Positions 3,610 to 41,526 of a stretch of DNA of 64,000 bases are shown here, piece by piece. Origin of the DNA: a virus; the IMG/VR virus record IMGVR_UViG_3300027693_000002; one strand, written 5' to 3'. Position 1 is the first letter of the stretch; the number at the start of each line of letters is the position of its first letter. Position numbers and translations under genes: made by a program. Under the pieces are notes generated by a model. It did no database searches. It was not told the DNA's origin and worked only from the letters and a program-made list of their open reading frames with translations.

Positions 3610-3888
3610 CTAGATGACCGGCTTTCTTTCGTACCGGGTTGGGATCTCTACTTCATACACTTCAAACTTGTCTTCTTCTCCGAGAATTATCGCAGCACCT
3701 GGATGCCCAGATACCTGAGTTGAGATCTGAACGAGCTCTTCGATGTCCCGTTCGCCCATAGAGGTCGGGCGTCGAAAGACGAACAAGTTGAGCTTGCTGG
3801 CTGACGGATTGTCTAGTGGGATCTCGACAACCTCAGGACTTGACCCATTCGCGGGGAGGACCTTTACTTCCAACCTACGCTGACTCAT
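3610..3888 (-). CDS. hypothetical protein ending in TRYERKPVI
   Basis: ORF track 92 aa; shares C-terminal RYxRxPVI motif with 5 other ORFs. Confidence 0.45.
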   Translation of the reverse strand: MSQRRLEVKVLPANGSSPEVVEIPLDNPSASKLNLFVFRRPTSMGERDIEELVQISTQVSGHPGAAIILGEEDKFEVYEVEIPTRYERKPVI

Positions 3889-4024
3889 GGGTTGTCCCGT
3901 TCACTGCTCTCGGTTCTGATGTCACTAGATTAACCATTTCCCCCGATTCAAGACCCTTTGGTATCGACTTACTCGTACCATTGAAGTTGGAGGTGCCTGA
4001 GGAGACTGTATAGCTAGAGCACTG

Positions 4025-4054
4025 TTCAGGTCCCCATCCCGGTGGGGACCTGAA
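4025..4054. other. perfect hairpin TTCAGGTCCCC-atcccggt-GGGGACCTGAA in intergenic region
   Basis: 11-bp perfect inverted repeat with 8-nt loop between convergent/tandem minus-strand genes; no T tract. Confidence 0.5.
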
Positions 4055-4197
4055 CGAAGTCCCTTGGCAGGAGCAACCGAACGGATTGGGTAGCCCATTA
4101 TAATAGGGTTGAAGTTAATTACCTTACCGTATTGCCGGAGTTTCTTGGGTTCCATACAATGCGGAACAGTGCTCAAGCTTCAATACTATGTCAATCC

Positions 4198-4653
4198 TCA
4201 ACTAGGAACCGGAGCCGCGCTCATTGGAGTGGGCACCCTGGGCTCAGATGGGTTGAAGATTTCGGCGAGAGATGATGCTGGTTCGAAGTAGCCCTTGGCG
4301 AACCTCCCGCCAAGGAAGTCCGCATCTCTTATCCGAACAGCAGACCAATGAATGGACTGGGCCAAGAAACGGTCCACCTCCATGTGCGTTACGAGACCAC
4401 CCTGCCAAGCGATGATGGCAGATCGGTGTTCGAGGACGGTGTCGTCTTTGATGTTTCGAAGCATGACGAGGCACCCAAGGTTGAGGAAGTAGTACGCACT
4501 GACCTTCAGGTAGATGGGTTTTGACTCGGTTTTGACTTCACTTTTGGAATTGGCGAGAAGGCCTAAGTAGATGCAACCGTCGATAATCTTTCGACAATCC
4601 ACCTTTTCGTCCAATGTGATAGACCCACCTTCAACCAGAATTGAGTATTCCAT
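4198..4653 (-). CDS. hypothetical protein
   Basis: ORF track 151 aa. Confidence 0.4.
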   Translation of the reverse strand: MEYSILVEGGSITLDEKVDCRKIIDGCIYLGLLANSKSEVKTESKPIYLKVSAYYFLNLGCLVMLRNIKDDTVLEHRSAIIAWQGGLVTHMEVDRFLAQSIHWSAVRIRDADFLGGRFAKGYFEPASSLAEIFNPSEPRVPTPMSAAPVPS

Positions 4654-4720
4654 GGGGTGCTAATACACCAAAATTCGGATTCTTGGTTTAGTTATTGGTT
4701 CTTCATGCGTAATAGAGGGT

Positions 4721-4963
4721 ATGCTGAATGGAGATCGATTGACTGACAAGTTTCAAGGAGAGCCCAAGTTTGTTCTTGACTTTTGGGAACGCGCCCAAAA
4801 GGGTATGGCAGACGAAGTGGATGATACGATTTTCAAGTTCACTATTACCGCTGAGGATGTGGCGAAGTACCCGGAATTGAAGCCGGGGATGCGTCTGTTT
4901 CTTACAGAGTCTACGGATGGATTCGTTTTTCACGAGCTTCTTCCGCCAAAACGATCTAACTGA
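4721..4963 (+). CDS. hypothetical small protein
   Basis: ORF track 80 aa, fills gap between minus-strand genes. Confidence 0.3.
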   Translation: MLNGDRLTDKFQGEPKFVLDFWERAQKGMADEVDDTIFKFTITAEDVAKYPELKPGMRLFLTESTDGFVFHELLPPKRSN

Positions 4964-4977
4964 TTCCTCGTTCCAGT

Positions 4978-6438
4978 CTACGTGCATTGTATGGTCTTTT
5001 TGTAGGCCTTTTCGAGCACCCCTCGCGGGTAGTAACCATGCACGAAATCCCATGGAAGCGGACCACTAAGGTCGAGCTTACCGGTAGTCGTCCCGGTAAG
5101 CTCGACCGCGGCAACTGGGGTAACCGCAGACTTTGACTCAAGTGCGATCAGCTTTGCCCCCACACGCCCTGACCGCATCAGTATACAGGTCAGGGCGTGC
5201 TTTCGTTCCTGTCTCCCGGAACCATGTTCTAGCTTCAGACAGTACGTTTTGCGGATGTTTCTGGCCAAGGCCTTACTCCACGGCTCGCAATCCGGCCCAA
5301 TGGGACACCACTGCAGTGGTGTCCCAGGACAGGGTAGTAACGGTTGCCATCGGATCGTTAGCTGCCCGGTGATTCTCCGTTCCAGCATTGTCGCATCGAG
5401 CCTTCGGATTGTCTGCGCCAGTTCCGCGGTTTCAGATACCAACTCCCCCGGAAGTCCAGAGATCATGTGCCAATTGGTCTTCTCACAGGCTTCACCCTTC
5501 CGCGTTTTCTGTCTCTCGTATAGCCCGCACATAGCCTCAACGATGAAGTCGTTCGTTAGTCTGGCCTTGCCGATTTTGCGGCGGACACGCTCGGTCACAG
5601 CCTCGATTCCGAAATTGAACAACTTGTCGAATAGAAATTCGCTCCTAGCATCGTAATTAGAATCGAGACGTGAGGTACACCCGGTGTCTTTGATTCCTCT
5701 CTCGCGCATCCACTCACGCAACCGAACGATGTCCGGGTAAGCTTCGGCATCGCAAGCCTGCAGGTGGACCGAAGGCACTCCTCGGATAGCATCCCGTACG
5801 TCGTCCAAGGTGTTATGTCGAACTGGACCCATCCATCCGAGTCCGCAGAATGAGCACTTGCTCTTGCATCCACGCGAGAGCTCGATTCTGGCATGCTGTT
5901 CCATTGGTAGGCTTCTGCTTTGAAGTGAAGTTCGTATATCCGGTGACCAACCCATTTTCAGGGTCACCTCATTTTCGTTGTGGATCGAAGGAACGAATAC
6001 CCCAGAGACAGTAGACGCTCCCACCAGGAACTCTCTACTGTTCCCATTTCGCTCCCATATTTGGAGTAATTGAGGCAGCGAGAGCTCTGCATCCCCAAGC
6101 ACTATCAAGTCAGCAATATCGGCAATAGGTAGCGGATTGCGTGTACCTTGTCCGCCCATCCATACGAGCGGGTGACTTCGGTCGCGGTCTTTGGCAAGTA
6201 GCGGCAATTTCAGCTTCTGCATCGCCTTTCCAAGGGACAGCATCGAACTAAAGTCGTGAACCGCTATGAACACTGCGTCATGGCGGTTCAGTTTGTTCGC
6301 GTATTCGAGCTCTAGTCCGTAGGGCTTTCCGATAATCTCGAGTATTCGTAGGGGAAACGTGAGACCGGTGGTCTCAGTTCTTCCGGTGGCCCTTGCGAAG
6401 GCATCCCATGTGTCGAGCGTGCAAGCTAGAGCTTTCAT
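4978..6438 (-). CDS. B12-binding-domain radical SAM enzyme (class B-like)
   Basis: CxxxCxxC cluster in ELSRGCKSKCSFCGLGW; N-terminal cobalamin-binding-like region (LVWMGGQGTRNPLPIADIADLIVLGDAE); start abuts stop of upstream RAMP gene (6438/6439). Confidence 0.75.
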   Translation of the reverse strand: MKALACTLDTWDAFARATGRTETTGLTFPLRILEIIGKPYGLELEYANKLNRHDAVFIAVHDFSSMLSLGKAMQKLKLPLLAKDRDRSHPLVWMGGQGTRNPLPIADIADLIVLGDAELSLPQLLQIWERNGNSREFLVGASTVSGVFVPSIHNENEVTLKMGWSPDIRTSLQSRSLPMEQHARIELSRGCKSKCSFCGLGWMGPVRHNTLDDVRDAIRGVPSVHLQACDAEAYPDIVRLREWMRERGIKDTGCTSRLDSNYDARSEFLFDKLFNFGIEAVTERVRRKIGKARLTNDFIVEAMCGLYERQKTRKGEACEKTNWHMISGLPGELVSETAELAQTIRRLDATMLERRITGQLTIRWQPLLPCPGTPLQWCPIGPDCEPWSKALARNIRKTYCLKLEHGSGRQERKHALTCILMRSGRVGAKLIALESKSAVTPVAAVELTGTTTGKLDLSGPLPWDFVHGYYPRGVLEKAYKKTIQCT

Positions 6439-7092
6439 CTATCCTGGGAGGAAGCAGGCTTCCTCACGAGAGTACATCCAATAGGGGGGTCGTAACGTTG
6501 CGTAACCGGTCCTGGTTGTCGTGGCCACGCCAGGCCAACCTAACGGCAAGGGACGCTTCGGAGTGCCGTTATGAACCACCGGAAACCCTTCACCCCAGGG
6601 TTTACAGCTTTCAACCTTCCATGAGCCTTCAATGATCCGCCCTTTGCCGATTGAGCGATGTTTGCCGAGGTAGAATACATCCGTCAGTAAGTTGTGTACA
6701 CTGACAATGTCTCCCAATGCAAACCATGTCACTTTGTCGTCAACTGCGAACTGGTAGTCATACTCCATCATATAGAGCTTGTCGGGGCCACTAGCAATCG
6801 ATACGGAACCACCACGCTTTCCAAAGTGGCAGTATTCTTCGATTGGTGGGCGTCGTGTTCGAAATGAGCCGAATGTCTCCTCTATCTCAAACATGGCCGA
6901 TGAGCACAGTCGAATCCCAGCAGCTTCGTCAATGGGTACTGGGATCTCTTTGATTTCGTCCTCGGATATCGGAGTAGGCAACTGCTCACGCATTGCTATC
7001 ACTGCGGCCAATAGTGAATCCAACACGGTAGGGGTTCGCATTACGAACCCCTCGGCAAGCTTGCAGCTGACCTTGATTGGCTCGTAGTTCAC
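6439..7092 (-). CDS. putative Cas5-like RAMP protein
   Basis: glycine-rich loop YLGKHRSIGKGRI (GxxxxxGxG) and N-terminal PTVLDSLLAAVIAM resembling the Cas5 motif; 4-nt overlap with upstream gene. Confidence 0.4.
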   Translation of the reverse strand: MNYEPIKVSCKLAEGFVMRTPTVLDSLLAAVIAMREQLPTPISEDEIKEIPVPIDEAAGIRLCSSAMFEIEETFGSFRTRRPPIEEYCHFGKRGGSVSIASGPDKLYMMEYDYQFAVDDKVTWFALGDIVSVHNLLTDVFYLGKHRSIGKGRIIEGSWKVESCKPWGEGFPVVHNGTPKRPLPLGWPGVATTTRTGYATLRPPYWMYSREEACFLPG

Positions 7093-8072
7093 GCTGCTAC
7101 CTCGTGCCGTAACCAGTTCACCAGCTGTTCCTTGTGATCGGTAACGTGCGCTCGGAACAGATCACCGGTTCCTTTTCGCTCACCGATGTCGAGCTCTCCT
7201 GTGTATTGTTTGAAGTGAACCCTGGCACCCGCAAGGAATTCGAGTTCCCCGTGTTCTGATGCTTGTTTTCCTCCGAAACGGAAGTTGTTCAATAGGCAGG
7301 AGTAGGCGTACTCGAAAGCGTCTCGCTCAAGCTCGTTATAAGACCTCAACAAGAACGACAGTTGAAACAATGACCCGCGAATGATTCGCTCGAACGTATG
7401 CGGCATCATGTCGCTCTTGACTTTTGCGGCCTCGATCGCGTTCCCCTCCTCGTGAGCTTTACCCTGTGCTAGTAGCTTGTTATAGACTTGTAACCTCGCA
7501 CCCTCCGAAAGCAGTTTCAGGTTCTCGGGAAGGATCTCCGGGTCCATATTCACCCGTTGAACTTTCTCAAGTAGGTAGGAGCTTTCGCAGATCCCTTCAT
7601 TGTTATCCTTGAGCCACTGTCGCGTCCATGGATTTAGCGAGTGCATGTTTTCCTCGCAGATGAGCTTCAGTGCGTCAACATTGAGTTGTCCGCCTTGGGT
7701 ACGATTGTCGATGCAACCCCCAAGGATCCCAAGAAACGGGAATAGCGTCACAAGCTCGCGCCATCGATCGATGTTGATCGTGGTCCCATCACCCTTTCCA
7801 GTGAGCATTCCGCCGTTGAACAGCAGCCGCATCGCTCCACGTTCGAGTTGGGGATCCCCCAGAATTCCAGCTGCGTCCAATGAACAGATCGCGGCAGCTC
7901 GGCGTAATCGATTTCTAACTGCGTTACCAGTGCCCTCTGGCACGTCTGCGATCTCTCCGCCAGGAAGCCTTACAGCTGCACGCATGATCGTTGCGTGATT
8001 TCCGATACTACCCTTGTGATGCGCGATCGGTTGAACTGCCCTGACCACCGAAATGTATCGAGTTGTCTCCAT
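7089..8072 (-). CDS. putative Cas7-like backbone RAMP protein
   Basis: 327 aa; EGTGNAVRNRLRRAAA resembles the Cas7 [S/C]LKRxIR motif; Gly-rich segments (LFNGGMLTGKGDG, RFGGKQASEHGE); 1-nt stop/start overlap with upstream ORF. Confidence 0.4.
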   Translation of the reverse strand: METTRYISVVRAVQPIAHHKGSIGNHATIMRAAVRLPGGEIADVPEGTGNAVRNRLRRAAAICSLDAAGILGDPQLERGAMRLLFNGGMLTGKGDGTTINIDRWRELVTLFPFLGILGGCIDNRTQGGQLNVDALKLICEENMHSLNPWTRQWLKDNNEGICESSYLLEKVQRVNMDPEILPENLKLLSEGARLQVYNKLLAQGKAHEEGNAIEAAKVKSDMMPHTFERIIRGSLFQLSFLLRSYNELERDAFEYAYSCLLNNFRFGGKQASEHGELEFLAGARVHFKQYTGELDIGERKGTGDLFRAHVTDHKEQLVNWLRHEVAA

Positions 8073-8611
8073 TATGCCGTTTCCTCAACTAACAATCCAT
8101 TCTCTTCTGCTGCTGCCAACATGTCTTCCTTGGTAAGTTTCCCAAGGATTCGCTCCTGCTTCTCTCGCTCCCGTTCTTCTTTGCGAAGTTCGATCTGTTT
8201 GCGGAGCAATGCAAACAAGAACGCACCATCGCGAATTACCATCATTTTCGCTTCTCTGTGGCACGAGTGTTCGTCGCAGAAGCTTACTAGATCAAGGAGC
8301 GTTGAAGAGGCTGAGCTGCCCCACGTGTCGATGCTCTGCATTTGTAGGTCTATTTGAAGCTCGTTCACCCACCGATTGATGGTCGGTGACATTTCTGCAC
8401 TTGTTCTGGCTCGGTTTTGGATCTGTTCGAGGTAGTCCGGCTTTACCTTCCCCCCTTTGTCCTTCACATACCGGTCTCGGATCGATAACAGCATCTCGAC
8501 AAGAAGTGTTTCGAGATGCTTTCTTTCTTCCTGTTTCAACACTTTGAGTCTCCTTGGTTCTCTGTTTGGTCCGTGCCTTACGTTCTTTCTCTGCTGCCTT
8601 CTCGGCTTCAA
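8072..8611 (-). CDS. small alpha-helical protein, Cas11-like small-subunit candidate (true start probably internal, near 8494)
   Basis: position between large-subunit-like and Cas7-like genes; helical, ~140 aa from M40; overlaps 3' end of 8292..9464 in another frame. Confidence 0.3.
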   Translation of the reverse strand: MKPRRQQRKNVRHGPNREPRRLKVLKQEERKHLETLLVEMLLSIRDRYVKDKGGKVKPDYLEQIQNRARTSAEMSPTINRWVNELQIDLQMQSIDTWGSSASSTLLDLVSFCDEHSCHREAKMMVIRDGAFLFALLRKQIELRKEEREREKQERILGKLTKEDMLAAAEENGLLVEETA

Positions 8612-9464
8612 TCCTTATAGCTACTGCTGCCTCATCTCGTTGAGATAGCCATAGCGCCAAACGAAACCACCCAGTATGCCGCCGCTTCGCGTTACGACCC
8701 TCAAATTCACGGATTGCTGTCTCCAAGCGCAGCCATGTGAACTGGCTATATTCTCCGATGAGAATCTCTTCCTTTGTTGCTCCAGCGGTGAGAAGTGCTG
8801 TCATTTCGTCTACCAGCGAGAGACCTGGTGGGATGCTAACAAGCGTCTCCTCGAACAGCACCGTTCCGCCTGGACCGAGCAGGTTCGGTGGTGTATGATG
8901 CACCACATGCTTCTGTCCACTGTCTGCGATTGCAGCGAACCACATGCCGTGGTGGTCACGCCTTAGGAAGTTAAGCACGATCGGTTTTTCTCCCTTTGAT
9001 GCGTTCAGGTAGCCTGGGATCACGGTTCCATCCGGAAGTGACGGTGAATCCCACCCCTCCTCATATAGGTGGCTGTAATTGCGGAAGTTGCCACCGAACG
9101 ACGCTTCGCCCGTACCACCACACTTAGGGCAAGCGTCTCCGATCTTGGACGCCTTTCCTTTGCCCTTGGGAGGAATCTTTTTCACAGTTCCGGTTCCCTC
9201 GCAAACCGAACACTGTCCTGGCGGGCGCCCAGGGACTGGAAAAGTACGTGCAGCAAGCATGCAACATGCCTCACAGACGTAAATTGCTGCAGGACAACGC
9301 GCACGATTCTGATCTGTGTAACTTGAAGTACACCAGTCGACAACGGGTTTTCCTCGAACTACAGGACCTGCGCAAACGTAGCAAAGACCGTTTGCCTCCG
9401 AGCACCCGTCAACCCGCGGGCTTCCTATTGCTTTGTGAAGCAGCTGACTTGGCGAGGGCCTCAT
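8292..9464 (-). CDS. zinc-finger protein, Csf1/Cas8-like large-subunit candidate
   Basis: four CxxC pairs (CYVCAG, CEACC, CSVCEG, CPKCGG); likely start at M25 forming ATGA overlap with stop of Cas6-like gene; low-complexity K/R-rich C-terminus. Confidence 0.4.
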   Translation of the reverse strand: MRPSPSQLLHKAIGSPRVDGCSEANGLCYVCAGPVVRGKPVVDWCTSSYTDQNRARCPAAIYVCEACCMLAARTFPVPGRPPGQCSVCEGTGTVKKIPPKGKGKASKIGDACPKCGGTGEASFGGNFRNYSHLYEEGWDSPSLPDGTVIPGYLNASKGEKPIVLNFLRRDHHGMWFAAIADSGQKHVVHHTPPNLLGPGGTVLFEETLVSIPPGLSLVDEMTALLTAGATKEEILIGEYSQFTWLRLETAIREFEGRNAKRRHTGWFRLALWLSQRDEAAVAIRIEAEKAAEKERKARTKQRTKETQSVETGRKKASRNTSCRDAVIDPRPVCEGQRGEGKAGLPRTDPKPSQNKCRNVTDHQSVGERASNRPTNAEHRHVGQLSLFNAP

Positions 9465-10387
9465 ATTGTCTCTACCTTGATTCGCCCAAATCCAAACGCC
9501 AACTTGCCTCCCAATCCCATGCCGAGGGCGGCACATTCAAGCAGAAGCCTACCAAGCGCATTCACTTCAATGTCGATGCTTCCAGACCACCCACAAATGT
9601 CACCAAGCTTGCTGCCATTGCCAGATAGTCGAAGCTTGTCTAAGAAGGCTTTTGAGTCAAGCAATCTGACCTGAACGTCGTGTTTCTCAGTCTTTATTCC
9701 AAGCCTTCGTGCAACGTTTACCTCAAGAGTCCCTTTGATGTTGTTCGCAGTTGGAGCCATGTAATAAGTCCCTCCAGTTGCGCGACAACACACAGGTGTA
9801 ATAGTTGTGATTCGAAGTTTCCAAGCACCTGGCTTGATCTGTGGTGCTTTGACACGTACGAGCCATCCTAGAGCGAGTTCCTGCTCACGGTCATTGAAGT
9901 TGACCACGTGTGTACGCATGGCAATCGATCTGGCTAACTCAATATCTCGAATGTACGCGGCCCATCCGCACCCTATGTGCCACGGAAACAGTGTAAATAC
10001 TGGGTTGTTGGCTGAGTGAGGTCCAGTGATCGTACTCATCATTCCGTGAAGTGATGCAAGTTGCCAATGTTCGAACTTATACCCACACTCAATAGCAATC
10101 GGGACGCATCCGCCCGGTAGGTATTCGATCATTGGGGCTGGCATCTCCCATTCACCTCTACCAGTTTTTACTGACATGCGTCTACCCCTTCGAGCTACCC
10201 TGTGGTTGAGCTTATTTTCCGGATCGGAGTACCACTTTTGGCTGCGTTTCTTGGATTTTTCAATCTGTTCTGAACGATGCCAACGAGCGCGCTCCTTGCA
10301 CCTAGTACAGCAGTATTGTTGGTATGGATGTGTTGGTTCGAACTCTATCTCGCATGAGTCGAATGCGCATTTTCTTGTTGCTAGCAC
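9461..10387 (-). CDS. putative Cas6-like RAMP endoribonuclease (possible internal start near 10177)
   Basis: C-terminal glycine-rich loop AALGMGLGGKLAFGFGRIKVE matching Cas6 GhGxxxxxGhG; first gene of coupled operon. Confidence 0.45.
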   Translation of the reverse strand: MLATRKCAFDSCEIEFEPTHPYQQYCCTRCKERARWHRSEQIEKSKKRSQKWYSDPENKLNHRVARRGRRMSVKTGRGEWEMPAPMIEYLPGGCVPIAIECGYKFEHWQLASLHGMMSTITGPHSANNPVFTLFPWHIGCGWAAYIRDIELARSIAMRTHVVNFNDREQELALGWLVRVKAPQIKPGAWKLRITTITPVCCRATGGTYYMAPTANNIKGTLEVNVARRLGIKTEKHDVQVRLLDSKAFLDKLRLSGNGSKLGDICGWSGSIDIEVNALGRLLLECAALGMGLGGKLAFGFGRIKVETI

Positions 10388-10570
10388 TCACACCTCATTC
10401 GTCGCAGTACACTACACCAGAATCGTGTTTGAGTTTGGTGTAGTGAAGAAGCGTGGCGGGTGCCCAACTCATTAACGGAGACCTCTCAGAGGCTGCTAAC
10501 CGCCTTGAACGGACTGTGTCGGAGTCGAAGTGATGAGCGACGCTGAGCCACTTCGGGGTCATGCGCCCCC

Positions 10571-10873
10571 TCATCCTCGGCAGTCGGCTTGACTACCGAG
10601 GATGAGTCGATTATCCTCCCGCATAGAATCGATACTAGATTTTCCAGAAACCCAGAGGATGCCCTGAACGAAGCACAACCAACGAACAGCCTTTTCCGGA
10701 TTCGCTGGTATCATCTTCCGAATCTCCTCGCACATCCAAAAGCAGTGATCATAAGCGCAGAGGTTTCCTGGACAAGTGTTCAGAGAGGTATCCCACTTTC
10801 GAGGAGTAGCTCCTGCAAGCTGAAATATTGATCTGTATCTCTCCGATACTTTTAGGATTTGCGTTGTATCCAT
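10571..10873 (-). CDS. hypothetical protein
   Basis: ORF track 100 aa; competing +strand ORF 10589..10831. Confidence 0.25.
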   Translation of the reverse strand: MDTTQILKVSERYRSIFQLAGATPRKWDTSLNTCPGNLCAYDHCFWMCEEIRKMIPANPEKAVRWLCFVQGILWVSGKSSIDSMREDNRLILGSQADCRG

Positions 10874-11710: not shown

Positions 11711-12775
11711 TTGCATCTATGCGTAATAACACGGGGCATGACTACCCACCCTATGCGCTGGATAGCGGGAACGGGGCAGATCATACCAGTTTTCATCATA
11801 AAAGCTGGTACTGAAGGGCATTCGCCGACGAATGCCCCTCCTGATCCTGTGACCGTACGTTCAGTTGAAGACCATTACGAATTCGTGGCCAGCGAGAGCT
11901 GCTTGTTCACGGACCGCAGGCTGGCAATCGTTGAAGCGAGGCGGTTGCAAGAGAAAGAAAGGAGGGCAACCGCTATAGCCGTGATTGAACATAAGAAACT
12001 GCTTAATGGGACAGGGCTAACCCCGACGAGCCCCGCCACCTCAGTAAGTAGTTCCGATACTCGGGCACCTGTGGTAGAGGTGTCAGTATCGGTGGAGGAG
12101 GAAGTTGTGATGTCGGAAGATGAAAAACCTCAAAAGTTACTCGATAGGGTAATCTATGTCATTGGAACTGAGACTCTCAGCGTCGGCGAGATTTGCACTA
12201 GGCTGGAGAAGAGATGTTGGATGCCCAAGCGAAGGAGTTCAGTAAGTAATATACTTTCGGCACACAAGAATCGGTTCATCTGCCCCGTGAGGGGCAGGTA
12301 CTCTCTAGCAACCAAAGCGAAGATTAGCCCAATCCTCGGAGATGACCCCTCAAATGATACCCTAGATCTTGGAGAAGCTCTTCAAGCTATGAGCGACGAG
12401 TCTGATGAGGATGAGGGGAAGAATGATGAGTCTGAGAACGATGATGACGAGGAGGGTGACGAGTCCGATGACGATGATGAGGACGATGCTGATCTCGCTA
12501 AGAGCAAAGCCAAAGTACAGTCAGAGTTCTCGACATGGATGAACCAACCCATGCACTCGGTAAACCCAACTCATTGCCACTACCAGAACGAGGATGTTGT
12601 TCTTTCCGAGAAGCAAACAGGTGGGAAGTGGCACACCGAAATCTTCGTGCACGGTCTTGAACTGTGGTGCGAGGGTAACGATGAGGATCGATCCGTGGCC
12701 CGAATGGCTGCCGAAGATCAGCTCCGGTCCAAGGTCCAGAAGATTAGCCGAATCGTCGACACTTTGGGTTGTTGA
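11711..12775 (+). CDS. hypothetical protein with strongly acidic D/E-rich segment
   Basis: 354 aa; SDESDEDEGKNDESENDDDEEGDESDDDDEDD tract; followed by strong terminator. Confidence 0.5.
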   Translation: MHLCVITRGMTTHPMRWIAGTGQIIPVFIIKAGTEGHSPTNAPPDPVTVRSVEDHYEFVASESCLFTDRRLAIVEARRLQEKERRATAIAVIEHKKLLNGTGLTPTSPATSVSSSDTRAPVVEVSVSVEEEVVMSEDEKPQKLLDRVIYVIGTETLSVGEICTRLEKRCWMPKRRSSVSNILSAHKNRFICPVRGRYSLATKAKISPILGDDPSNDTLDLGEALQAMSDESDEDEGKNDESENDDDEEGDESDDDDEDDADLAKSKAKVQSEFSTWMNQPMHSVNPTHCHYQNEDVVLSEKQTGGKWHTEIFVHGLELWCEGNDEDRSVARMAAEDQLRSKVQKISRIVDTLGC

Positions 12776-12838
12776 CCAAAAAAAGCAAAAAGCCCATCCA
12801 GTCCCACAGAGCGGAGCTGGATGGGCTTTTTGCTTTTT
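12771..12838. terminator. bidirectional rho-independent terminator
   Basis: 17-bp stem GCAAAAAGCCCATCCAG / CTGGATGGGCTTTTTGC flanked by A7 upstream and T6 downstream. Confidence 0.7.
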
Positions 12839-13338
12839 TAGGCTGTCGTGGCATCGGCAAGACCCGCAAACCACGCTTGGTGTCTGACAGGGTGAGTTCA
12901 TTGCGGTAGGTGTGCTTGGCCAAGTTAGTCCTAGAACCAATGGACTCCAATCATCCTTGGGGGAGCGTATTCGCTTGCCCGTCTCGAAGCCCTCGATTGC
13001 TTTGACTGCGTAGGTACTCTGCCGTCGCTTGAAACCCAATTCTTCCGAGATTAGACGCACTAGCATCGCCGAGTCCAAGGATTCTCAGTCAGTAGGCCCC
13101 AACGAACTACCCTTAAGTCCGCCTTACTAGCTTCATTTCTTAGCTCTATCATACAGTTATCATCTACTACCTTGGTCGAAATGCCTCATTTTATATACAG
13201 ATCCCTCACGGGCCTTATGGCTGAAGTTACAGGTTTTGACGATAGTCAAGCTCTGCACGTACTTTTCAGGTTGTACCTCGATCTACTTTGATCCACTATT
13301 GATGGCCACAGCCTAAATGGCTAGAAAGTAATAAGCAC

Positions 13339-13940: not shown

Positions 13941-15440
13941 GCAGTTGACTCCAAACCTGATCAAAGTTGATCGACCCTATTCAAACTTGAATTTCGATAA
14001 CTTTTTCTGAACTTGGTGTAAGATACCCATTCTTCATGGAACTTCGGAAGGCGTATAAGTTCGAGTTAGATCCGAACAATCGGGTTCGGACGTTCTTGGC
14101 GAAGCATGCCGGAACGGCTCGCTTCGCTTGGAATTGGTCCCTCCAAAGGAGGATCGAACGCTTCCGAACCCAAGAAGGTAAGGAGAAGTTCACCAACGCC
14201 ATCGCTGAACATCGGGACCTCAACGCCCGCAAGGGCCCTGACTTCCCTTGGATGTACGAGGTTTCCAAGTGTGCCCCTCAGGAAGCTCTTCGTGATCTTG
14301 ACAAAGCTTTCAAAGCTTTCTGGTCCAGAAGATCAGAAGGAGTTGGCTTCCCAAAGTTCAAAAAGAAGCATAAATCAAAGGATTCCTTCCGTCTCTATGG
14401 TTCAATTGAGCCACAAACTAGGTATATTAAGCTCCCTAGGCTTGGGACTATTCGAACCAAAGAGAAGATCAACGGCAGGATTAGTGGGGAGATCCTTTCA
14501 GCTACGATTTCGAGGGTAGCAGATCGATGGTTCGTATCCGTCAATACCGTTGAGGTCGTGACGGATCCTATTCCTATCCAAGGACCAAAAGCTGGGGTAG
14601 ATCTAGGGATTCTTACTTTCGCTACGGTCTCTTCGGACGGGGCCTGTACGAAGATACATGCCCCGAATCCATTGAAACAAGCGTTAAGTCGGTTAAGAAG
14701 GGCTCAACGCTCTCATTCGAGGAAGCGTAAGGGTTCGTCAAATAGGAGGAAATCAGCTCAAAGATTAGCGAGGATTCACTCACGAGTAGCAAACGTTCGA
14801 AGGGATTTCCTTCATAAGTTCACAACGGGGCTGGCGAAAACCAAGTCAGCCATCGTTGTGGAAGACCTTGGTATTCGTGGAATGAGTAAGAATCCTCACC
14901 TTTCTCGGTCGATCTTGGACCAAGGGTGGTTTGAAAGTAAGAGGCTACTTTCCTACAAGACCACTTGGTATGGATCTAAGCTAGAAGTAGCTGATCGATG
15001 GTTCCCATCCTCGAAGATATGTACCAGCTGCGGCCTTAAACGGCCGCAGCTGGCTCTTTCTGTGAGAGAGTGGGTTTGTGAAGGATGTGGAGCTATTCAT
15101 GATCGAGATGAGAATGCGGCGAAGAATTTGGAAAGGTACTCGGAGTTCCCGAGGAACCTAGGCGCCTTCGGCGCTAAAAAGCCTGTGGAGAGTCCTCTAG
15201 CGGCGGAACGAAGGAGAACCCTTCGGCCTACGAGTCATGTCTCGTTGAAGCAGGAAGTGAACATCGGAGTTCTCCTATGAGCAACTTTGAATAAGTTTCA
15301 CAGAACGGTCTTTTGGAAGGCTATACTCAATTTAGTTGAGATTCAGACAAGCTCGCGCGTAAGAGTGGTTGAAGCGGTTCACAGTTCGTCACTGGAGTCA
15401 AGGCGTGCGATAGTTCTTATCGAGGTTCAAGGGTATGACC
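13941..15440 (+). mobile_element. IS200/IS605-family tnpB-only element (IS1341-like); ends not defined
   Basis: TnpB ORF with no tnpA; conserved 37-bp motif 95 nt upstream of tnpB start that recurs at 40049 and 61677; right end/omega-RNA region guessed. Confidence 0.3.
14036..15280 (+). CDS. tnpB: IS200/IS605-family TnpB (OrfB) RNA-guided endonuclease
   Basis: 414 aa; RuvC-I (GVDLGILTFATVS), RuvC-II (IVVEDLGIRGMSKN), zinc finger CTSCG...CEGCG, RuvC-III HDRDENAAKNL. Confidence 0.9.
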   Translation: MELRKAYKFELDPNNRVRTFLAKHAGTARFAWNWSLQRRIERFRTQEGKEKFTNAIAEHRDLNARKGPDFPWMYEVSKCAPQEALRDLDKAFKAFWSRRSEGVGFPKFKKKHKSKDSFRLYGSIEPQTRYIKLPRLGTIRTKEKINGRISGEILSATISRVADRWFVSVNTVEVVTDPIPIQGPKAGVDLGILTFATVSSDGACTKIHAPNPLKQALSRLRRAQRSHSRKRKGSSNRRKSAQRLARIHSRVANVRRDFLHKFTTGLAKTKSAIVVEDLGIRGMSKNPHLSRSILDQGWFESKRLLSYKTTWYGSKLEVADRWFPSSKICTSCGLKRPQLALSVREWVCEGCGAIHDRDENAAKNLERYSEFPRNLGAFGAKKPVESPLAAERRRTLRPTSHVSLKQEVNIGVLL

Positions 15441-19493: not shown

Positions 19494-20198
19494 TTAGGAT
19501 AGCGACCTCATTATCCGTTGGTACCGAGTAAGTACTGGAGCCTTTTCTTGTGGGGAATTCCTCAGCAACCACTCGCGGCAATCGGCGAGTTGGGAGTTTC
19601 TTTCTTCATCACTAACCCCATCAGTAGTATCCCAAGCCCAAGTAGTAGCATCCCAAGCATCAGAAACAGTCCAAGTACCCAAAGCAGCTCCAGCAGCAAA
19701 AGCAGCAGCTCTCGCTGGCCAAACATCTCTAACATCAGAAACAGAAGCGTCAAAAGCAGCTCAAGTAGAAGCAGCCTCAGAAACAACCCTAGCCGCTTCG
19801 TCAGCCGCATTAGAAGCGCTCTCTAGCTCTTCTTTCGGGATCTCTTCCCCCTCAGCGTATCGGTCGCATAGATCTAAGGCTTGAAGGCTACCAGGATGAG
19901 ACCCTTCTGTCTTCGTACAGGCCCGGCGCGCAGCCCGAGCCGCCACATAGACCATTCCCCTCCTCCCAAGAACCTCCTCGTGTAGGAGAAGCCGAACCTT
20001 GTTCTTAGAGGGGATCGATGCTCCGAACACATCCATCACCCCCATCGGGAGTTGTTCGTTCGGGATAAGGTCAGAATTTTCCCACCTCTCAAGGAGTTCA
20101 CTCGTAATGGTTATCACAAGGACCTCATTATCCGCTGATACCTTGTGAGTATGGGGGCTCTTTCTTGTGGGTTTCCCCTTAGAAGCCAATCTCGGCAA
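19494..20198 (-). pseudogene. paralog copy 4; reading frame broken inside the Ala-rich linker (N-domain ORF 19761..20198, C-domain ORF 19494..19682)
   Basis: conserved N and C domains lie in different frames; low-complexity GCAGC-rich DNA between. Confidence 0.4.
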
Positions 20199-20650
20199 TC
20201 AGTAAGTTGGGACCTTCTCTCTATCTCTTCATTAGAAGTAGCAGTCCAAGCAGCCCTAGGAACAGCAATCGCTCTAGCAGCATTAGCAGCAGCCCTAGCA
20301 GCCCAAGAAGAAGCAGCTTCAGAAGAAGCCACCTCAGCCGCCTTAATAGCTCTCTCTAACTCTTCTTTCTGGATATCTTCTCCAGCAGCGTACCGATCAC
20401 ATAGATCTAGAGCTCGAAGACTATCAGAATGGTACCAACCTGTCACTGTACGGGCTCGGCGTGCCGCCCTGGCCGCTACATAGACCAAACCCCTCCGCCC
20501 AAGAACTTCCTCACGTAAAAGAACCCGAACCTTGTCCCTAGAGGGAATCGGGGCTTCGAACAACCTCATCACCTCCATCGGAAGTAGTTCTTTTGGGATA
20601 AAGTCGGAAACCTCCCAACTTTCGAGAAGTTCACTCGTAATTGTAATCAC
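20114..20650 (-). CDS. paralog copy 3, intact 178-aa member of tandem family
   Basis: contains complete N domain, Ala-rich linker and C-terminal TRYQRIMRSL. Confidence 0.6.
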   Translation of the reverse strand: MITITSELLESWEVSDFIPKELLPMEVMRLFEAPIPSRDKVRVLLREEVLGRRGLVYVAARAARRARTVTGWYHSDSLRALDLCDRYAAGEDIQKEELERAIKAAEVASSEAASSWAARAAANAARAIAVPRAAWTATSNEEIERRSQLTDCRDWLLRGNPQERAPILTRYQRIMRSL

Positions 20651-20662
20651 AACGACCTCATC

Positions 20663-21412
20663 TTATGTGTTCCCTTTCAGCAACCACTCTCGACAATCAG
20701 CGAGTTGGGACTTTCTCTCCTCTTCCCTTTCTCCTTCCTCATTAGAAGTGGCTCTAACAGCAGCTGCCTCCACAGCGGCCCAAGCATCAGTCCTGACAGG
20801 GGACAAAGACGAAGCGGCATTAGCAGCCCTTACCGCCTTACAAGTAGCCCATGCCGCCCCCCAAGTAGCATCACAAGCAGACAGAGCCGCCACATCAGCC
20901 ACATTAGCAGCTCTCGCTAGCTCTTCTTTCGGGATCTCTTCCCCTTCAACGTATCGGTCGCATAGATCTAGAGCTCGAAGGCTATCAGAATGAGACAATT
21001 CTGTCTTCGTACAGGCCCGACGGGCAGCCTTCGCCGCCACATAGACCATTCCCCTCCTCCCAAGAACCTCCTCGTGTAAGAGTATCAATAGGGTATTAAT
21101 AGGGGAGATAGGGATTTCAAACAATCCCATAAGCCCCATCGGAATGATCTCTTTCTTATTGGCTATCATATCACCCCCATTATTCGTTGGTACAGGAACC
21201 CTCAGCAACCACTCTCGGCAATCAGTGAGTTGGGCTTCTTTCTCTTCCTCCTCACTAGAAAAATCCATCCAAGCAGTGGCTCGGGCAGCAGTGATAGCAT
21301 TATTCCAGGCATTAGTAGCATCCCAAGTAACTCTAGCATTAGCCCAAGCAGCCATAGAAGCAGCCCAAGCAGTCAATAGAAGAAGCCCAAGCATTCCCCC
21401 TAACAGCTTCAA
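20663..21412 (-). CDS. fused/degenerate paralog copies 1-2 (C domain of copy 1 joined in-frame to degenerate N domain of copy 2)
   Basis: AQLTDCREWLL motif near N-terminus, then EEVLGRRGMVYVAAKAARRA... and second SQLADCREWLL at C-terminus. Confidence 0.45.
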   Translation of the reverse strand: MKLLGGMLGLLLLTAWAASMAAWANARVTWDATNAWNNAITAARATAWMDFSSEEEEKEAQLTDCREWLLRVPVPTNNGGDMIANKKEIIPMGLMGLFEIPISPINTLLILLHEEVLGRRGMVYVAAKAARRACTKTELSHSDSLRALDLCDRYVEGEEIPKEELARAANVADVAALSACDATWGAAWATCKAVRAANAASSLSPVRTDAWAAVEAAAVRATSNEEGEREEERKSQLADCREWLLKGNT

Positions 21413-21474
21413 CGGCTGCCATAGAAGCAGCCTCAGCAGCCTTCTCTAACTCTTCCTTCGGGATCTCTCCCCCT

Positions 21475-37222: not shown

Positions 37223-38236
37223 TCAACTATCAAGTAGTTTTTTGGCTACTTCTAGCACATCATTAGTCCAAAAGAAGCCTGTACGTGGCTTTCTAGAGTA
37301 GGGGTTGGTCACCGATGGGCAACATTGGGTTACTCCATCGATCCAATCCTTGGGGACTTGCTCCATCCCGTAAACAGCCCCAAGCAGAGCACCGGCAATT
37401 GCTCCGTTGGTATCGGTATCACCTCCGCGATTGACGGTATCGACAATTCCTTCAGTCAATGACGGGGCGTGTAGTAGTTGATAGAGCGCATTCTGGAAAG
37501 CGAGGACAACCCAACCCATATTCACCATGTAGTTTTCCGGTGGGGCAGTTCTAGCTCGGTCGATAGCTTCGAGGATAACTGGATGGGCTTCCATATCCAC
37601 TGCTGTTGCGGCCAGCGCACCGTAGAGTTGATCTGGGCTTGCATCACTTCCGATTGCTTGATCGATCATCGATACATAAAGTGCATTGATTTGTAAGCAT
37701 ATTTGATTTGGGTGCGTAATAAGGGCATCCTCCATCGCCCAGATCATGGTCTTTCTCCAGTCCTTCTTCTTCGCTCCAAAGATCCCCAAGGGGGCGACAC
37801 GCATCAAAGCCCCATTGGCTTGGCTGTGGAAGTCAGGCATATCCAGGAGTCCATTTTGAGTGGTCCTGCCAACGTCAAATGGTTGGCTATTGAGCCAATA
37901 GCAATACATACTCCGCATAATGGTTGAGCTGTAAAAACCATGGTGAATGAGAGTCCTAGCTAGGGTGATGGCCATTTCGGAATCGTCTGTGCCTTGCCCC
38001 GCCAAGGTCTCCCAGGTGCCCCCATCAGCGAGGTAGCGCACTTTTTCTCCTTGGTGCTCCTGAAGGATGGTCTCCTCGGACTCGAACTCTACGAGGCTCC
38101 CAAGGGAGTCTCCGACCACATGACACAGCAGACAAGCTTGGGCTTTACTCAACGAAGAGGGCATGGTAGCTGATACACCATCGAAATTTAGGTGGCAGCC
38201 ACTCCTATAACCTGAGATTGATTTCAAGTGACTCAA
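37223..38236 (-). CDS. ADP-ribosylglycohydrolase (ARH/DraG family)
   Basis: HVVGDSLGSLVEF, GQGTDDSEM, GNGALMRVAPLG, GGDTDTNGAIAGALLGA family motifs; 337 aa. Confidence 0.8.
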   Translation of the reverse strand: MSHLKSISGYRSGCHLNFDGVSATMPSSLSKAQACLLCHVVGDSLGSLVEFESEETILQEHQGEKVRYLADGGTWETLAGQGTDDSEMAITLARTLIHHGFYSSTIMRSMYCYWLNSQPFDVGRTTQNGLLDMPDFHSQANGALMRVAPLGIFGAKKKDWRKTMIWAMEDALITHPNQICLQINALYVSMIDQAIGSDASPDQLYGALAATAVDMEAHPVILEAIDRARTAPPENYMVNMGWVVLAFQNALYQLLHAPSLTEGIVDTVNRGGDTDTNGAIAGALLGAVYGMEQVPKDWIDGVTQCCPSVTNPYSRKPRTGFFWTNDVLEVAKKLLDS

Positions 38237-39121
38237 GAATATCTGTTCGACATGGAAACGAGTGACCCAGATGACGTGTTCACTCTAGCGCTCCTTGCTA
38301 CTCATCCCCGAGCCAAACTCGTTGGGGCTACGATCCATCCAGGAGGTTTCGACCAGGTCGGGATAGTTCGTCATGTCCTCGATCGTCTTGGGCGGACGGA
38401 CGTGCCTATCGGAATTGGGAGCCTCAAGAAGCAAACTTCTAAGGTGTCCCAGTTCCACTATGATTGGCTTGGGAAGATCTCCCCCTGTCAGCCCCAGGGA
38501 AGCGCCACTGAGGTCATTAAGCAGGTACTACTGGACTTTCCAACCACCCACCTAATCACTGGAGCGGCCCTCACCAACATCTGGAAGGCTAGCAGTGAGG
38601 TGTGGCCGTTTTTCCGTACGTGGACTTGCCAGGGTGGCTTCGCCGGAGACAACATCGTCCCACCCGAACACCGGCTACCCAAGTTCGCCGGCAAGCTCAC
38701 CTGTCCGACCTTCAACCTTGGGGGCGACTCGAAAGCAGCCCTCGGTTTACTGGGTAAAAACTCACCTATCTGGACTCGACGGATGGTTTCCAAGAACGTT
38801 TGTCACGGTGTCTTCTGGGGTCCTATGGTCAATGAGAGAATCCCTTCCGGAGCCCATGCTGGGCTTGACCTCATCAAGGAAGGGATGGCTTTTTACTTCA
38901 AAAAGCGCCCAGAGGGGAAGGCCCTTCACGACACAATAGCGGCTGCTGCAGCCATTGATCCAAGTATCGGAACATGGGTAAGAGTTCAACCTTACATGGA
39001 GAAGGGTGAGTGGGGTTGCCACGAGTACGATGAGTCAACTCGTCAAGCGAACGCTCCGGATCCACCCTCCATCATGATTGTGCTCAACAACGAGGCCTTC
39101 GAGCGAACCTTGGTTCACTAG
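38228..39121 (+). CDS. nucleoside hydrolase-like protein (IU-NH family, tentative)
   Basis: N-terminal DMETSDPDDVFTLALL resembles IU-NH DxDxxxDD aspartate cluster; ~300 aa. Confidence 0.45.
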   Translation: MTQEYLFDMETSDPDDVFTLALLATHPRAKLVGATIHPGGFDQVGIVRHVLDRLGRTDVPIGIGSLKKQTSKVSQFHYDWLGKISPCQPQGSATEVIKQVLLDFPTTHLITGAALTNIWKASSEVWPFFRTWTCQGGFAGDNIVPPEHRLPKFAGKLTCPTFNLGGDSKAALGLLGKNSPIWTRRMVSKNVCHGVFWGPMVNERIPSGAHAGLDLIKEGMAFYFKKRPEGKALHDTIAAAAAIDPSIGTWVRVQPYMEKGEWGCHEYDESTRQANAPDPPSIMIVLNNEAFERTLVH

Positions 39122-40584: not shown

Positions 40585-41526
40585 ATGGAAAAGTACCCTT
40601 CAATCGTTCAACTCTCCGACTGCCCAGAGATCTTTTCTGTCAGGGAAGTAGTTGCCCTCGAGAAAATCCACGGTTCGAATTTTCGTCTCTTTTTCCCACT
40701 CGGGATGAAAAGCATCGAAGAGATTGGTTATGGTTCACGTGACGTCGAATATCAACTTGGGCAGAACTTCCCGCTCGGGAGCATGCTTAACAAGTTCAAA
40801 GCCCAGAAGGACCTTCTAACAAGGATGATGGAGGTCATCAAGTCCTACGGGTTCTCTGAAGTCACCGTTTTTGGTGAAGCTCACGGTCCCGGCATCAAAA
40901 CCAAGGGAGTTCAATACTCAAGTGGTCAGGAGCCTCTTTTCAGAGCCTTCGACATCATGGTGGCCAAGAACTTTGTCACCTACGACCTGTTCATCGAGCT
41001 TTGCTCCAAGATGGAGCTACCTGTAATACCCGAGGTGTGGCGAGGGGAGCCGACTCAGGCAAACTTCGATGCGCTCTTAGAAAAACCCAGCACGGTTGGG
41101 AAGATCAATGGTTTTGGGGATGACAACATCGCTGAGGGGGTGGTCATCCGATCGAATCCTCTTCTCCGAAACGTGTTTGGAAACTGGCTAATCTGTAAGC
41201 ATAAATGCGCCAAGTTCGCTGAAGTTGCATCCGCCGCCAAAGAGAAAACTCCAAGGGGTCCTTCTCCGATTGATGACTTCATCGTCAAGTACGTCACGAA
41301 GGGGCGAGTCATCAACGCCGTCGGACGCCTTAACGACCGAGGGGTTGAATTAACCCATACCATGAAGGACATGCCATTGATCTTGACCACGGTTTGCGCA
41401 GACCTGGCCAAGGATTGCCAACGGGAGATGACCGAACTCGGGGCTACCGAGCAGAGCATCAAGGGGAGTGTCTCAAAAGTGCTAGGCCCGATGTACAGAG
41501 AGATACTTGCCGGTAAGGAGATTTGA
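40585..41526 (+). CDS. RNA ligase, Rnl2 family
   Basis: nucleotidyltransferase motif I EKIHGSNF (KxHG with adenylated Lys) as in T4 Rnl2; 313 aa. Confidence 0.75.
   Translation: MEKYPSIVQLSDCPEIFSVREVVALEKIHGSNFRLFFPLGMKSIEEIGYGSRDVEYQLGQNFPLGSMLNKFKAQKDLLTRMMEVIKSYGFSEVTVFGEAHGPGIKTKGVQYSSGQEPLFRAFDIMVAKNFVTYDLFIELCSKMELPVIPEVWRGEPTQANFDALLEKPSTVGKINGFGDDNIAEGVVIRSNPLLRNVFGNWLICKHKCAKFAEVASAAKEKTPRGPSPIDDFIVKYVTKGRVINAVGRLNDRGVELTHTMKDMPLILTTVCADLAKDCQREMTELGATEQSIKGSVSKVLGPMYREILAGKEI

Follow-up and report, generated by a model that had tools for sequence, protein, structure and literature searches.

A phage-borne, array-less type IV-B-like effector operon with a B12-type radical SAM enzyme in place of the CysH-like accessory

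Type IV-B is the main subtype of the CRISPR-Cas systems whose function is still unknown. Its complexes assemble on RNA, with Csf2 and Cas11 forming filaments, and its accessory protein CysH, likewise of unknown function, has been proposed to act on nucleic acids as a modifying enzyme (CasCysH) (PMC7937560; PMC8175902). The association between IV-B and cysH has been called 'strictly conserved' or 'nearly invariant' and has been considered key to the function of IV-B (PMC7038947, PMC8175902). Here we analysed a stretch of viral DNA of 64,000 nucleotides (IMG/VR record IMGVR_UViG_3300027693_000002, hereafter the window), in which six minus-strand open reading frames (ORFs) at positions 4978-10387 had been predicted, from the letters alone, to form a type IV-like operon coupled to a B12-binding radical S-adenosylmethionine (SAM) enzyme. 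All six ORFs were found at the positions given in that original prediction, and their order, 5' to 3' on the minus strand, is cas6-like, csf1, cas11-like, csf2, csf3 and radical SAM. This is a new type IV-B variant in which the defining accessory is replaced, and it is real and well conserved. Our overall reading, which we consider probable, is that of a phage-borne, array-less type IV-B-like effector operon that employs a radical SAM enzyme of the B12 type where canonical IV-B has its CysH-like PP-loop ATPase, and that would act by modifying nucleic acid; within this reading, confidence is high for the identity and linkage of the genes and modest for the mechanism.

The window locus shares with subtype IV-B, represented by the Csf complex of Mycobacterium sp. 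JS623 (PDB 7JHY), the same order of effector genes, with a putative Cas11 among them, the lack of helicase, nuclease and adaptation genes and of an adjacent array, and its location on a mobile element. It differs from it in that the near-invariant cysH-like gene is absent, with the radical SAM gene in its place; in having a Cas6 with a Zn-ribbon, Cas6 having been reported in only 12 IV-B loci (PMC7038947); in residing on a huge lytic-type phage and not on a plasmid; and in an overlap of about 250 nt between csf1 and cas11. With type IV-A (csf1-3, Cas6/Csf5, DinG and an array) and type IV-D (RecD) it has in common the Csf2 and Csf3 core, an RNase of the Cas6 family and a dedicated accessory enzyme, but it lacks their helicase and array and carries a putative Cas11, and the IV-A Csf2 is more distant (7e-8 or weaker). 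The atypical IV-B locus of the archaeal 'Fuxiviridae' is also a virus-encoded effector module without adaptation genes, but it keeps a CysH-like gene and a mini-array, whereas the window locus has the radical SAM gene and no local array (PMC10848311). In terms of class definitions, the operon presents the Csf2 signature, Csf3 and Csf1 with a Zn finger that characterise type IV, and, as in IV-B, there are no DinG, RecD, Cas10-HD or adaptation genes and no associated array, the departures from IV-B being the missing cysH-like accessory and the presence of Cas6. The earlier 'type IV-like' call was therefore right, and the locus is more exactly type IV-B-like, because a putative Cas11 is present, the closest solved Csf2 is the IV-B one and sister loci carry cysH. 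That no class 1 system with a radical SAM accessory has been described, as was also claimed, is consistent with the searchable literature: full-text searches for type IV or Csf2 together with radical SAM returned coincidental co-mentions only, with supplementary tables and subscription journals not exhaustively covered, and a radical SAM accessory goes unmentioned in the 2025 classification update, the 2023 survey of rare systems, the type IV survey and review and the huge-phage paper.

Pfam recognised few of the operon genes, whereas the defence-specific PADLOC profiles gave clear matches and the NCBIfam csf1, csf2 and csf3 profiles gave weaker but concordant ones. The csf2 gene (7089..8072, minus strand, 327 amino acids, aa), called Cas7-like from its motif VRNRLRRA, encodes the type IV Cas7 backbone subunit (PADLOC typeIV_Cas7, 9e-33), and a profile built from 28 Csf2 homologues found its best match in the type IV-B Csf2 of 7JHY (6.6e-19), followed by the IV-C Cas7c (2e-9), the IV-A Csf2 (7e-8 and weaker) and then Csm3. 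The product of csf3 (6439..7092, minus strand, 217 aa), for which a Cas5-like nature had been read from the loop LGKHRSIGKGRI, is the type IV Cas5 (PADLOC typeIV_Cas5/Csf3, 1.3e-29; NCBIfam cas5_csf3, 8.9e-8). The type IV Cas8-like large subunit is encoded by csf1 (8292..9464, minus strand, 390 aa; PADLOC typeIV_Cas8/Csf1, 1.4e-13; NCBIfam cas8u_csf1, 4.2e-5), and the four CxxC motifs behind its prediction as a Zn-finger protein were located at residues 28, 64, 85 and 112, the set including a DnaJ-type CxxCxGxG pair that constitutes an insertion specific to this clade; homologues of Csf1 occur in at least 40 loci. Put to profile and fold tests, the assignment of these ORFs to the repeat-associated mysterious protein (RAMP) class of Cas subunits holds, and they go to type IV Cas families.

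For the third ORF, proposed to be a small helical Cas11-like protein, the conserved position, size and helicity stood, as a conserved helical ORF of 125-160 aa lies between csf1 and csf2 in 28 loci, but its start had to be moved and its similarity to the known Cas11 is slight. An alignment with 19 homologues (A5) indicates that the gene (8072..8542, minus strand, 156 aa) most likely starts at GTG 8542 rather than at 8611, homologues in 28 loci having their start at the equivalent of 8542, and when its profile was compared with the PDB the Cas11 of 7JHY ranked second with a non-significant E value of 0.41. The protein has no match in Pfam, NCBIfam or PADLOC and no significant profile match in the PDB, and the Cas11 assignment is thus a positional one that rests on position, size, helicity and the existence of homologues in cysH-type IV-B loci. 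From this start, the 5' end of cas11 and the 3' end of csf1 overlap by 251 nt (8292-8542), with cas11 in the +1 frame. Most of 13 other loci checked present overlaps of about 240-300 nt, three have less than 100 nt, and the +1 frame is found in 13 of 13 (the overlap region concerns the window plus L002, L004-L006, L009, L011, L015, L020, L024, L027 and L028). The region is purine-rich, so that the open csf1 frame could be a compositional by-product, and the arrangement may be a real overlap or a +1 frameshift fusion.

The first gene, cas6-like (9461..10387, minus strand, 308 aa), matches PADLOC Cas6 profiles over its C-terminal 120 residues (2.9e-5), and its product consists of an N-terminal Zn-ribbon (C7/C12...C26/C30), a helical linker and a two-RRM (RNA recognition motif) Cas6 domain. 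The two RRM/ferredoxin folds and the C-terminal glycine-rich loop that are the hallmark of Cas6 were both found: the protein ends in the glycine-rich loop GLGGKLAFGFGRI, and the loop GLGGKLAFGFGRIKV, from which a Cas6-type protein had been predicted, is present. H114 and H124 are invariant in the homologues of this protein and are candidates for a catalytic role. About one in two of the related loci has a Cas6-type gene, which may precede or follow the core. One locus, L001, carries between csf3 and radical SAM a gene (3850-4557) with the C-terminal domain of Csb2, the type I-G/I-U Cas5-Cas6 protein (2e-35), and a Cas6-like protein of different origin has therefore been recruited to the same module.

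The six genes had also been described as coupled through overlapping or abutting stop and start codons. Direct reading showed each of the junctions specified to be exact: the cas6-like stop and the csf1 start share ATGA at 9464-9461, the cas11 stop and the csf2 start form TAATG with one base in common at 8072, the csf2 stop and the csf3 start share GTGA at 7092-7089, and the csf3 TAG abuts the radical SAM ATG at 6439/6438. Coupling of this kind holds for these four junctions but not for csf1 and cas11, where the long overlap described above takes the place of a simple stop/start junction. In a near-identical relative (L057, 120 kb, 98.9% identity) the operon is collinear, with 59 of 5,410 positions differing, no indels, and 38 synonymous versus 21 nonsynonymous differences. 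This collinearity with mostly synonymous changes, together with the recurrence of the gene order in dozens of divergent contigs, indicates that the arrangement is not due to chance. A 94-aa ORF (4703-4986, minus strand), the start of which overlaps the radical SAM 3' end by 9 nt, was considered as a member of the module but is probably not one, having no homologue in other loci.

Genomic contexts of the radical SAM family were gathered by exact look-ups and alignment-driven scans of viral, metagenomic and genome collections, and loci were annotated by iterative hidden Markov model searches seeded with the six proteins of the window; scans of viral contigs with the single sequences of Csf2 and of the radical SAM protein returned nothing, and alignment-based scans were needed. 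The radical SAM family is rare and its boundary is sharp: 49 homologues were found at 35-98% identity, after which similarity drops abruptly to E values of about 1e-25, and end-to-end matches amount to about 16 clusters at 50% identity among 1.84 billion representatives. Leaving aside three contigs that were too short to judge, the radical SAM gene adjoins csf3 in 29 of the 30 informative contigs (the window and its 98.9% relative included), so that the predicted csf-radical SAM order recurs well beyond the window. In 27 contigs csf3 lies on the same strand directly upstream of the radical SAM gene, although a single small gene may intervene, and in two the genes are convergent. The homologues in these csf3-linked loci span 29-98% identity and the loci range from 51 to 76% in GC content; even the homologue of L051, with only 29% identity, still follows csf2-csf3. 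The sole informative contig that has a radical SAM gene (37% identity) but no csf genes is L050. The linkage of the family to csf3 is hence near-exclusive, and our confidence in it is high. The contexts are mostly phage-like, several of them containing phage genes (Gp77/Gp80-like, endolysin, DUF3799 and DUF5131) and others coming from IMG/VR. GenBank phages gave no DNA match to the operon and only remote protein matches (27% identity for the Csf2 of Skermania phage SPI1 and 24-29% for radical SAM proteins).

Some of these loci contain further genes next to the radical SAM gene. In L050 (4478-11175) the enzyme is flanked by an HNH nuclease, a gene resembling methyl-directed restriction enzymes and a C5 DNA methyltransferase, and in L006 a DNA-methyltransferase-like gene lies between csf3 and radical SAM, neighbours that are a weak hint at a theme of DNA modification. 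A protein of about 90 aa (HAxxRYxER...WR..KPRRLRF), absent from the window and without Pfam or PADLOC match, is encoded in 11 radical SAM loci either between csf3 and radical SAM or just after radical SAM (for example, L002 2619-2885, L006 11464-11784, L033, L041, L044 and L048).

When viral contigs were scanned with the Csf2 alignment, 20 loci with the csf1-cas11-csf2-csf3 core were recovered, among them L014, which is one and the same contig as that of the radical SAM locus L006. The gene following csf3 belongs, for most of the loci recovered, to a single cluster with an SGGKDS PP-loop (PAPS_reduct, PF01507, 2.5e-10), which is the canonical cysH-like accessory of IV-B. An iterative search with the cysH-like protein of sister loci identified cysH in 19 distinct loci, none of which has a radical SAM gene; neither the window nor any of the radical SAM loci yielded a cysH-like ORF in this search. 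The radical SAM gene occupies the slot of the IV-B CysH-like enzyme, and the two are mutually exclusive. A neighbour-joining tree of Csf2 intermingles loci with radical SAM and loci with cysH, and several of the latter are sister to radical SAM loci. The divergence of Csf2 is tightly correlated with that of Csf3 (Spearman 0.88, a value reached by none of 2,000 permutations), whereas the radical SAM protein follows Csf2 and Csf3 weakly (rho 0.24-0.29, reached by about 5-9% of permutations) and is more conserved (median pairwise identity 51% versus 35%). Such loose correlation, against 0.88 for the Csf2-Csf3 pair, is the pattern expected of a swappable cassette, and the results as a whole point to repeated exchange, within a single slot, between two alternative accessory cassettes.

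The radical SAM gene itself (4978..6438, minus strand) encodes 486 aa with an N-domain of the Rossmann type that resembles B12-binding domains, followed by a radical SAM core carrying C191xxxC195xxC198 (CKSKCSFC at residue 191). The CxxxCxxC motif from which it had been predicted, the Pfam match of the core (PF04055, 1.4e-8) and the fold all agree; the N-domain matches PF19864 (3e-18), and the predicted structure, with a predicted local distance difference test score (pLDDT) of 90, contains the partial TIM barrel of radical SAM enzymes. The three cysteines C191, C195 and C198 are the only invariant ones among 36 family members, and the family has its own N-terminal segment of about 50 residues. 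A sequence search of the PDB gave no match, and only the fold search was informative, its match figures being 21.9 for MgmA, 19.6 for RimO, 18.6 for CysS, 17.7 for MiaB, 17.5 for AprD4 and 16.9 for TsrM, fold relatives that share the architecture of a Rossmann N-domain and a radical SAM barrel. The GG and GDAE motifs of the N-domain fit the pattern of B12 domains, the protein has no Pfam B12-binding match and falls far below every NCBIfam cutoff, and the use of cobalamin is putative.

MgmA, CysS, TsrM, TokK, MiaB and RimO resemble the window enzyme in the Rossmann N-domain, the partial TIM barrel and CxxxCxxC, but share only 13-18% identity with it. MiaB and RimO have in addition an auxiliary [4Fe-4S] cluster held by three N-terminal cysteines and a C-terminal TRAM domain, both of which the window enzyme lacks: its C-terminal region is helical rather than a TRAM barrel, and because no cysteine is conserved outside CxxxCxxC there is no auxiliary cluster of the methylthiotransferase type. 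The nearest relatives in sequence are the TIGR03960/Radical_SAM_N2 cellular proteins (E 1e-25 and weaker), with which it has the PF19864 N-domain in common; it is not a member of TIGR03960, however, as its match is confined to the N-domain and scores 67.6 bits, where the cutoff is 462. The TIGR03960 proteins are often fused to DUF2344 and are encoded in dcw clusters after ftsZ, away from csf genes, and these ftsZ/dcw contexts of the outgroup offered no functional lead. The idea that DUF2344 might be a RAMP- or Cas6-like ancestral link was rejected, as hhalign against the Cas6-like alignments gave a probability below 1%.

Placing these results into a functional model, we propose with modest confidence that the operon encodes a ribonucleoprotein that directs the chemical modification of nucleic acid. 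Csf2 and Cas11 would polymerise on RNA, as in the solved IV-B complex, Csf3 and Csf1 would cap the complex, and the Cas6-like subunit would supply or hold the RNA end. The resulting ribonucleoprotein could serve as a platform and deliver the radical SAM enzyme to a bound nucleic acid, which may be a complementary target or the scaffold RNA itself, where the enzyme would carry out a modification initiated by the 5'-deoxyadenosyl radical, most plausibly C-methylation or another C-H functionalisation. The modification may mark, silence or disable the nucleic acid, to the benefit of the phage during infection or in conflicts between mobile elements, and the CysH-like enzyme of the sister loci would do a chemically different, adenylation-dependent job on the same kind of substrate. 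We favour a nucleic-acid substrate because the two enzymes that take turns in the slot are chemically unrelated yet each belong to a family with many RNA and DNA modifiers, because divergence of the effector proteins does not go along with that of the enzyme and because no partner gene coding for a sensor or effector is conserved alongside. The tRNA modifier MiaB is among the fold relatives of the enzyme.

Several points weigh against this proposal. MgmA, which is a cobalamin-dependent glutamine C-methylase, and RimO, the top two fold matches, modify proteins, and the enzyme contains neither a TRAM domain nor any other recognisable nucleic-acid-binding domain. Its dependence on cobalamin cannot be told from the sequence, and AprD4, which has the same architecture, is reported to work without cobalamin. 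The solved IV-B complex bound heterogeneous RNA, and the 10 kb around each locus contain neither an array nor a repeat, so that targeting by a guide is hypothetical. For Csf2, the tree was built by simple neighbour joining and carries no support values, and both the docking of the radical SAM enzyme on the Csf complex and the nucleic-acid substrate are steps that we infer.

The likeliest of the rival explanations is an RNA sponge directed against host defence, which we nevertheless regard as unlikely. The Csf complex would soak up small guide RNAs of the host, crRNAs or others, the Cas6-like subunit may help to capture repeat hairpins, and the radical SAM or CysH-like enzyme would damage or tag the captured RNA against reuse. 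A phage-borne, array-less system whose solved IV-B counterpart binds heterogeneous, non-CRISPR RNA fits this role, which has already been proposed for IV-B (PMC8175902, PMC7038947), and a Cas6 with no cognate array nearby fits the capture of foreign repeats; yet Cas6 is missing from about half of the loci, the search for a matching host repeat gave none, it is not obvious why a sponge should need a radical enzyme with a costly Fe-S cluster, and a complex anti-CRISPR was judged unlikely by Pinilla-Redondo et al. (PMC7038947).

We give less credence still to a generator of signals or antimetabolites, in which the target-bound Csf complex would activate its partner to make a small molecule from SAM or a nucleotide, such as a viperin-like chain terminator or a second messenger. 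The PP-loop CysH-like enzyme would then be the ATP-using equivalent, and the precedent would be type III, from which type IV descends and whose Cas10 makes cyclic oligoadenylates or SAM-AMP. Radical SAM and CysH-like enzymes do both use adenine-nucleotide cofactors (SAM or ATP), and the affinity between types IV and III is apparent in the Csf2 profile, which matches Csm3, and is supported by the literature. Against this, no sensor or effector gene is conserved with the module, the only recurrent extra being the protein of about 90 aa in 11 loci, and the fold of the enzyme is far nearer to B12-type enzymes and methylthiotransferases acting on macromolecules than to viperin.

That the enzyme matures a protein, by methylating or methylthiolating a Csf subunit or a host protein in the manner of MgmA and RimO with the complex as substrate or adaptor rather than as a device that targets nucleic acid, would accord with its tight translational coupling to csf3, but is the least credible of the explanations, since a PP-loop ATPase would need to have the same role in the sister loci, the free divergence of Csf2 and Csf3 with exchange of the enzyme is hard to fit to a co-evolving enzyme-substrate pair, and the N-terminal auxiliary-cluster cysteines of RimO are absent.

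The exchange of partners bears on type IV-B as a whole. That closely related IV-B modules repeatedly swap the CysH-like partner for a radical SAM enzyme suggests that the slot is a general docking position for an enzyme performing chemistry, and that the function shared by IV-B systems has less to do with the metabolism of sulfate or ATP in itself and more probably consists in covalently modifying whatever the complex holds. The radical SAM enzyme also provides a second, biochemically tractable entry to the IV-B problem, with SAM cleavage, 5'-deoxyadenosine and product mass shifts as easy read-outs. More speculatively, and in the knowledge that the odds are against it, IV-B complexes may be programmable, or at any rate RNA-scaffolded, platforms for delivering chemical modification to nucleic acids. 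The variant described here may then be a first instance of radical chemistry recruited by a CRISPR-derived effector, an RNA-directed radical SAM 'writer' that alters RNA or DNA covalently, by C-methylation or otherwise, so that host or competitor genomes are silenced uncut. If guides turn out to program the complex, tools of sequence-directed base or backbone modification could be developed from it.

The absence of an adjacent array, as predicted, holds for the surroundings of the operon, where no CasΦ-type repeat or mini-array was found, and none of 57 loci has a CRISPR array in the 10 kb around its type IV operon, but the window does hold an array 48 kb away. This array (58743-59074; five 37-nt repeats and 4 spacers) lies downstream of a 793-aa ORF (59107-61488) that encodes CasΦ/Cas12j (5e-140 to CasΦ-2, PDB 7LYS). 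The window therefore derives from a huge phage of the CasΦ (Biggiephage) type, and the co-residence of CasΦ with the type IV-B-like operon is a further case of phages that accumulate multiple devices derived from CRISPR. The reverse complement of the CasΦ repeat ends in the hairpin CCCAA-TTCG-TTGGG followed by AC, so that transcription of the array probably proceeds on the minus strand, as for casΦ. A solitary degenerate repeat, with 2 mismatches in 25 nt, is located upstream of the CasΦ gene (61598-61622), and an ORF (58227-58700, minus strand) that stops some 40 nt short of the first CRISPR repeat contains only the C-terminal part of an ABC-transporter ATPase and looks like a gene fragment.

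The predicted lack of Cas3, Cas10, DinG and a CysH-like gene held as far as the searches reached, with no CysH-like ORF in the window and no helicase or Cas10 Pfam match among its ORFs of at least 250 aa outside the operon. Around the related loci no helicase, Cas10 or adaptation genes were seen within 10 kb, where the specific screen covered only the six genes and cysH.

Upstream of the operon lies a structured leader (10388-10640, minus strand), the RNA fold of which has a z-score of -4.4 relative to shuffled sequences. Within it lie a hairpin of 16 perfectly paired bp and a 5-nt loop (10570-10606, inverted repeat I13), which may be the terminator of the upstream gene or a regulatory element, and an additional 10-bp hairpin closer to the cas6 start; the leader is identical in the 98.9% relative, which makes its conservation uninformative. 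No terminator-like sites were found on the operon strand, the promoter and terminator scans gave counts at chance level, and the Rfam and tRNA scans of the window were empty.

Further upstream and on the opposite strand, a complete TnpB gene (14036-15280, plus strand; IS605 OrfB with helix-turn-helix, OrfB and Zn-ribbon domains) is present, which in L057 stands about 2.6 kb nearer to the operon, the interval differing by indels. Between the two, a 26-nt inverted repeat (12776-12842; 96% complementary, with a 15-nt spacer and A/T runs) directly follows the ORF at 11711-12775 and looks like a bidirectional terminator. The cargo of this huge phage further includes a CCA-adding enzyme with an HD domain (1201-2556), a stand-alone receiver domain (2591-2965), an ADP-ribosylglycohydrolase adjoining a nucleoside hydrolase, an RNA ligase, an 850-aa vault 'MVP shoulder' protein and a CrtC-like lipocalin protein (37223-39121, 40585-41526, 27378-29930 and 45429-46574, in the order listed). 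Finally, imperfect coding repeats of about 21-25 nt, rich in GCAGC/CAAG (Ala/Gln), are scattered over about 1.8 kb (19650-21440), where the GC skew is strongly negative.

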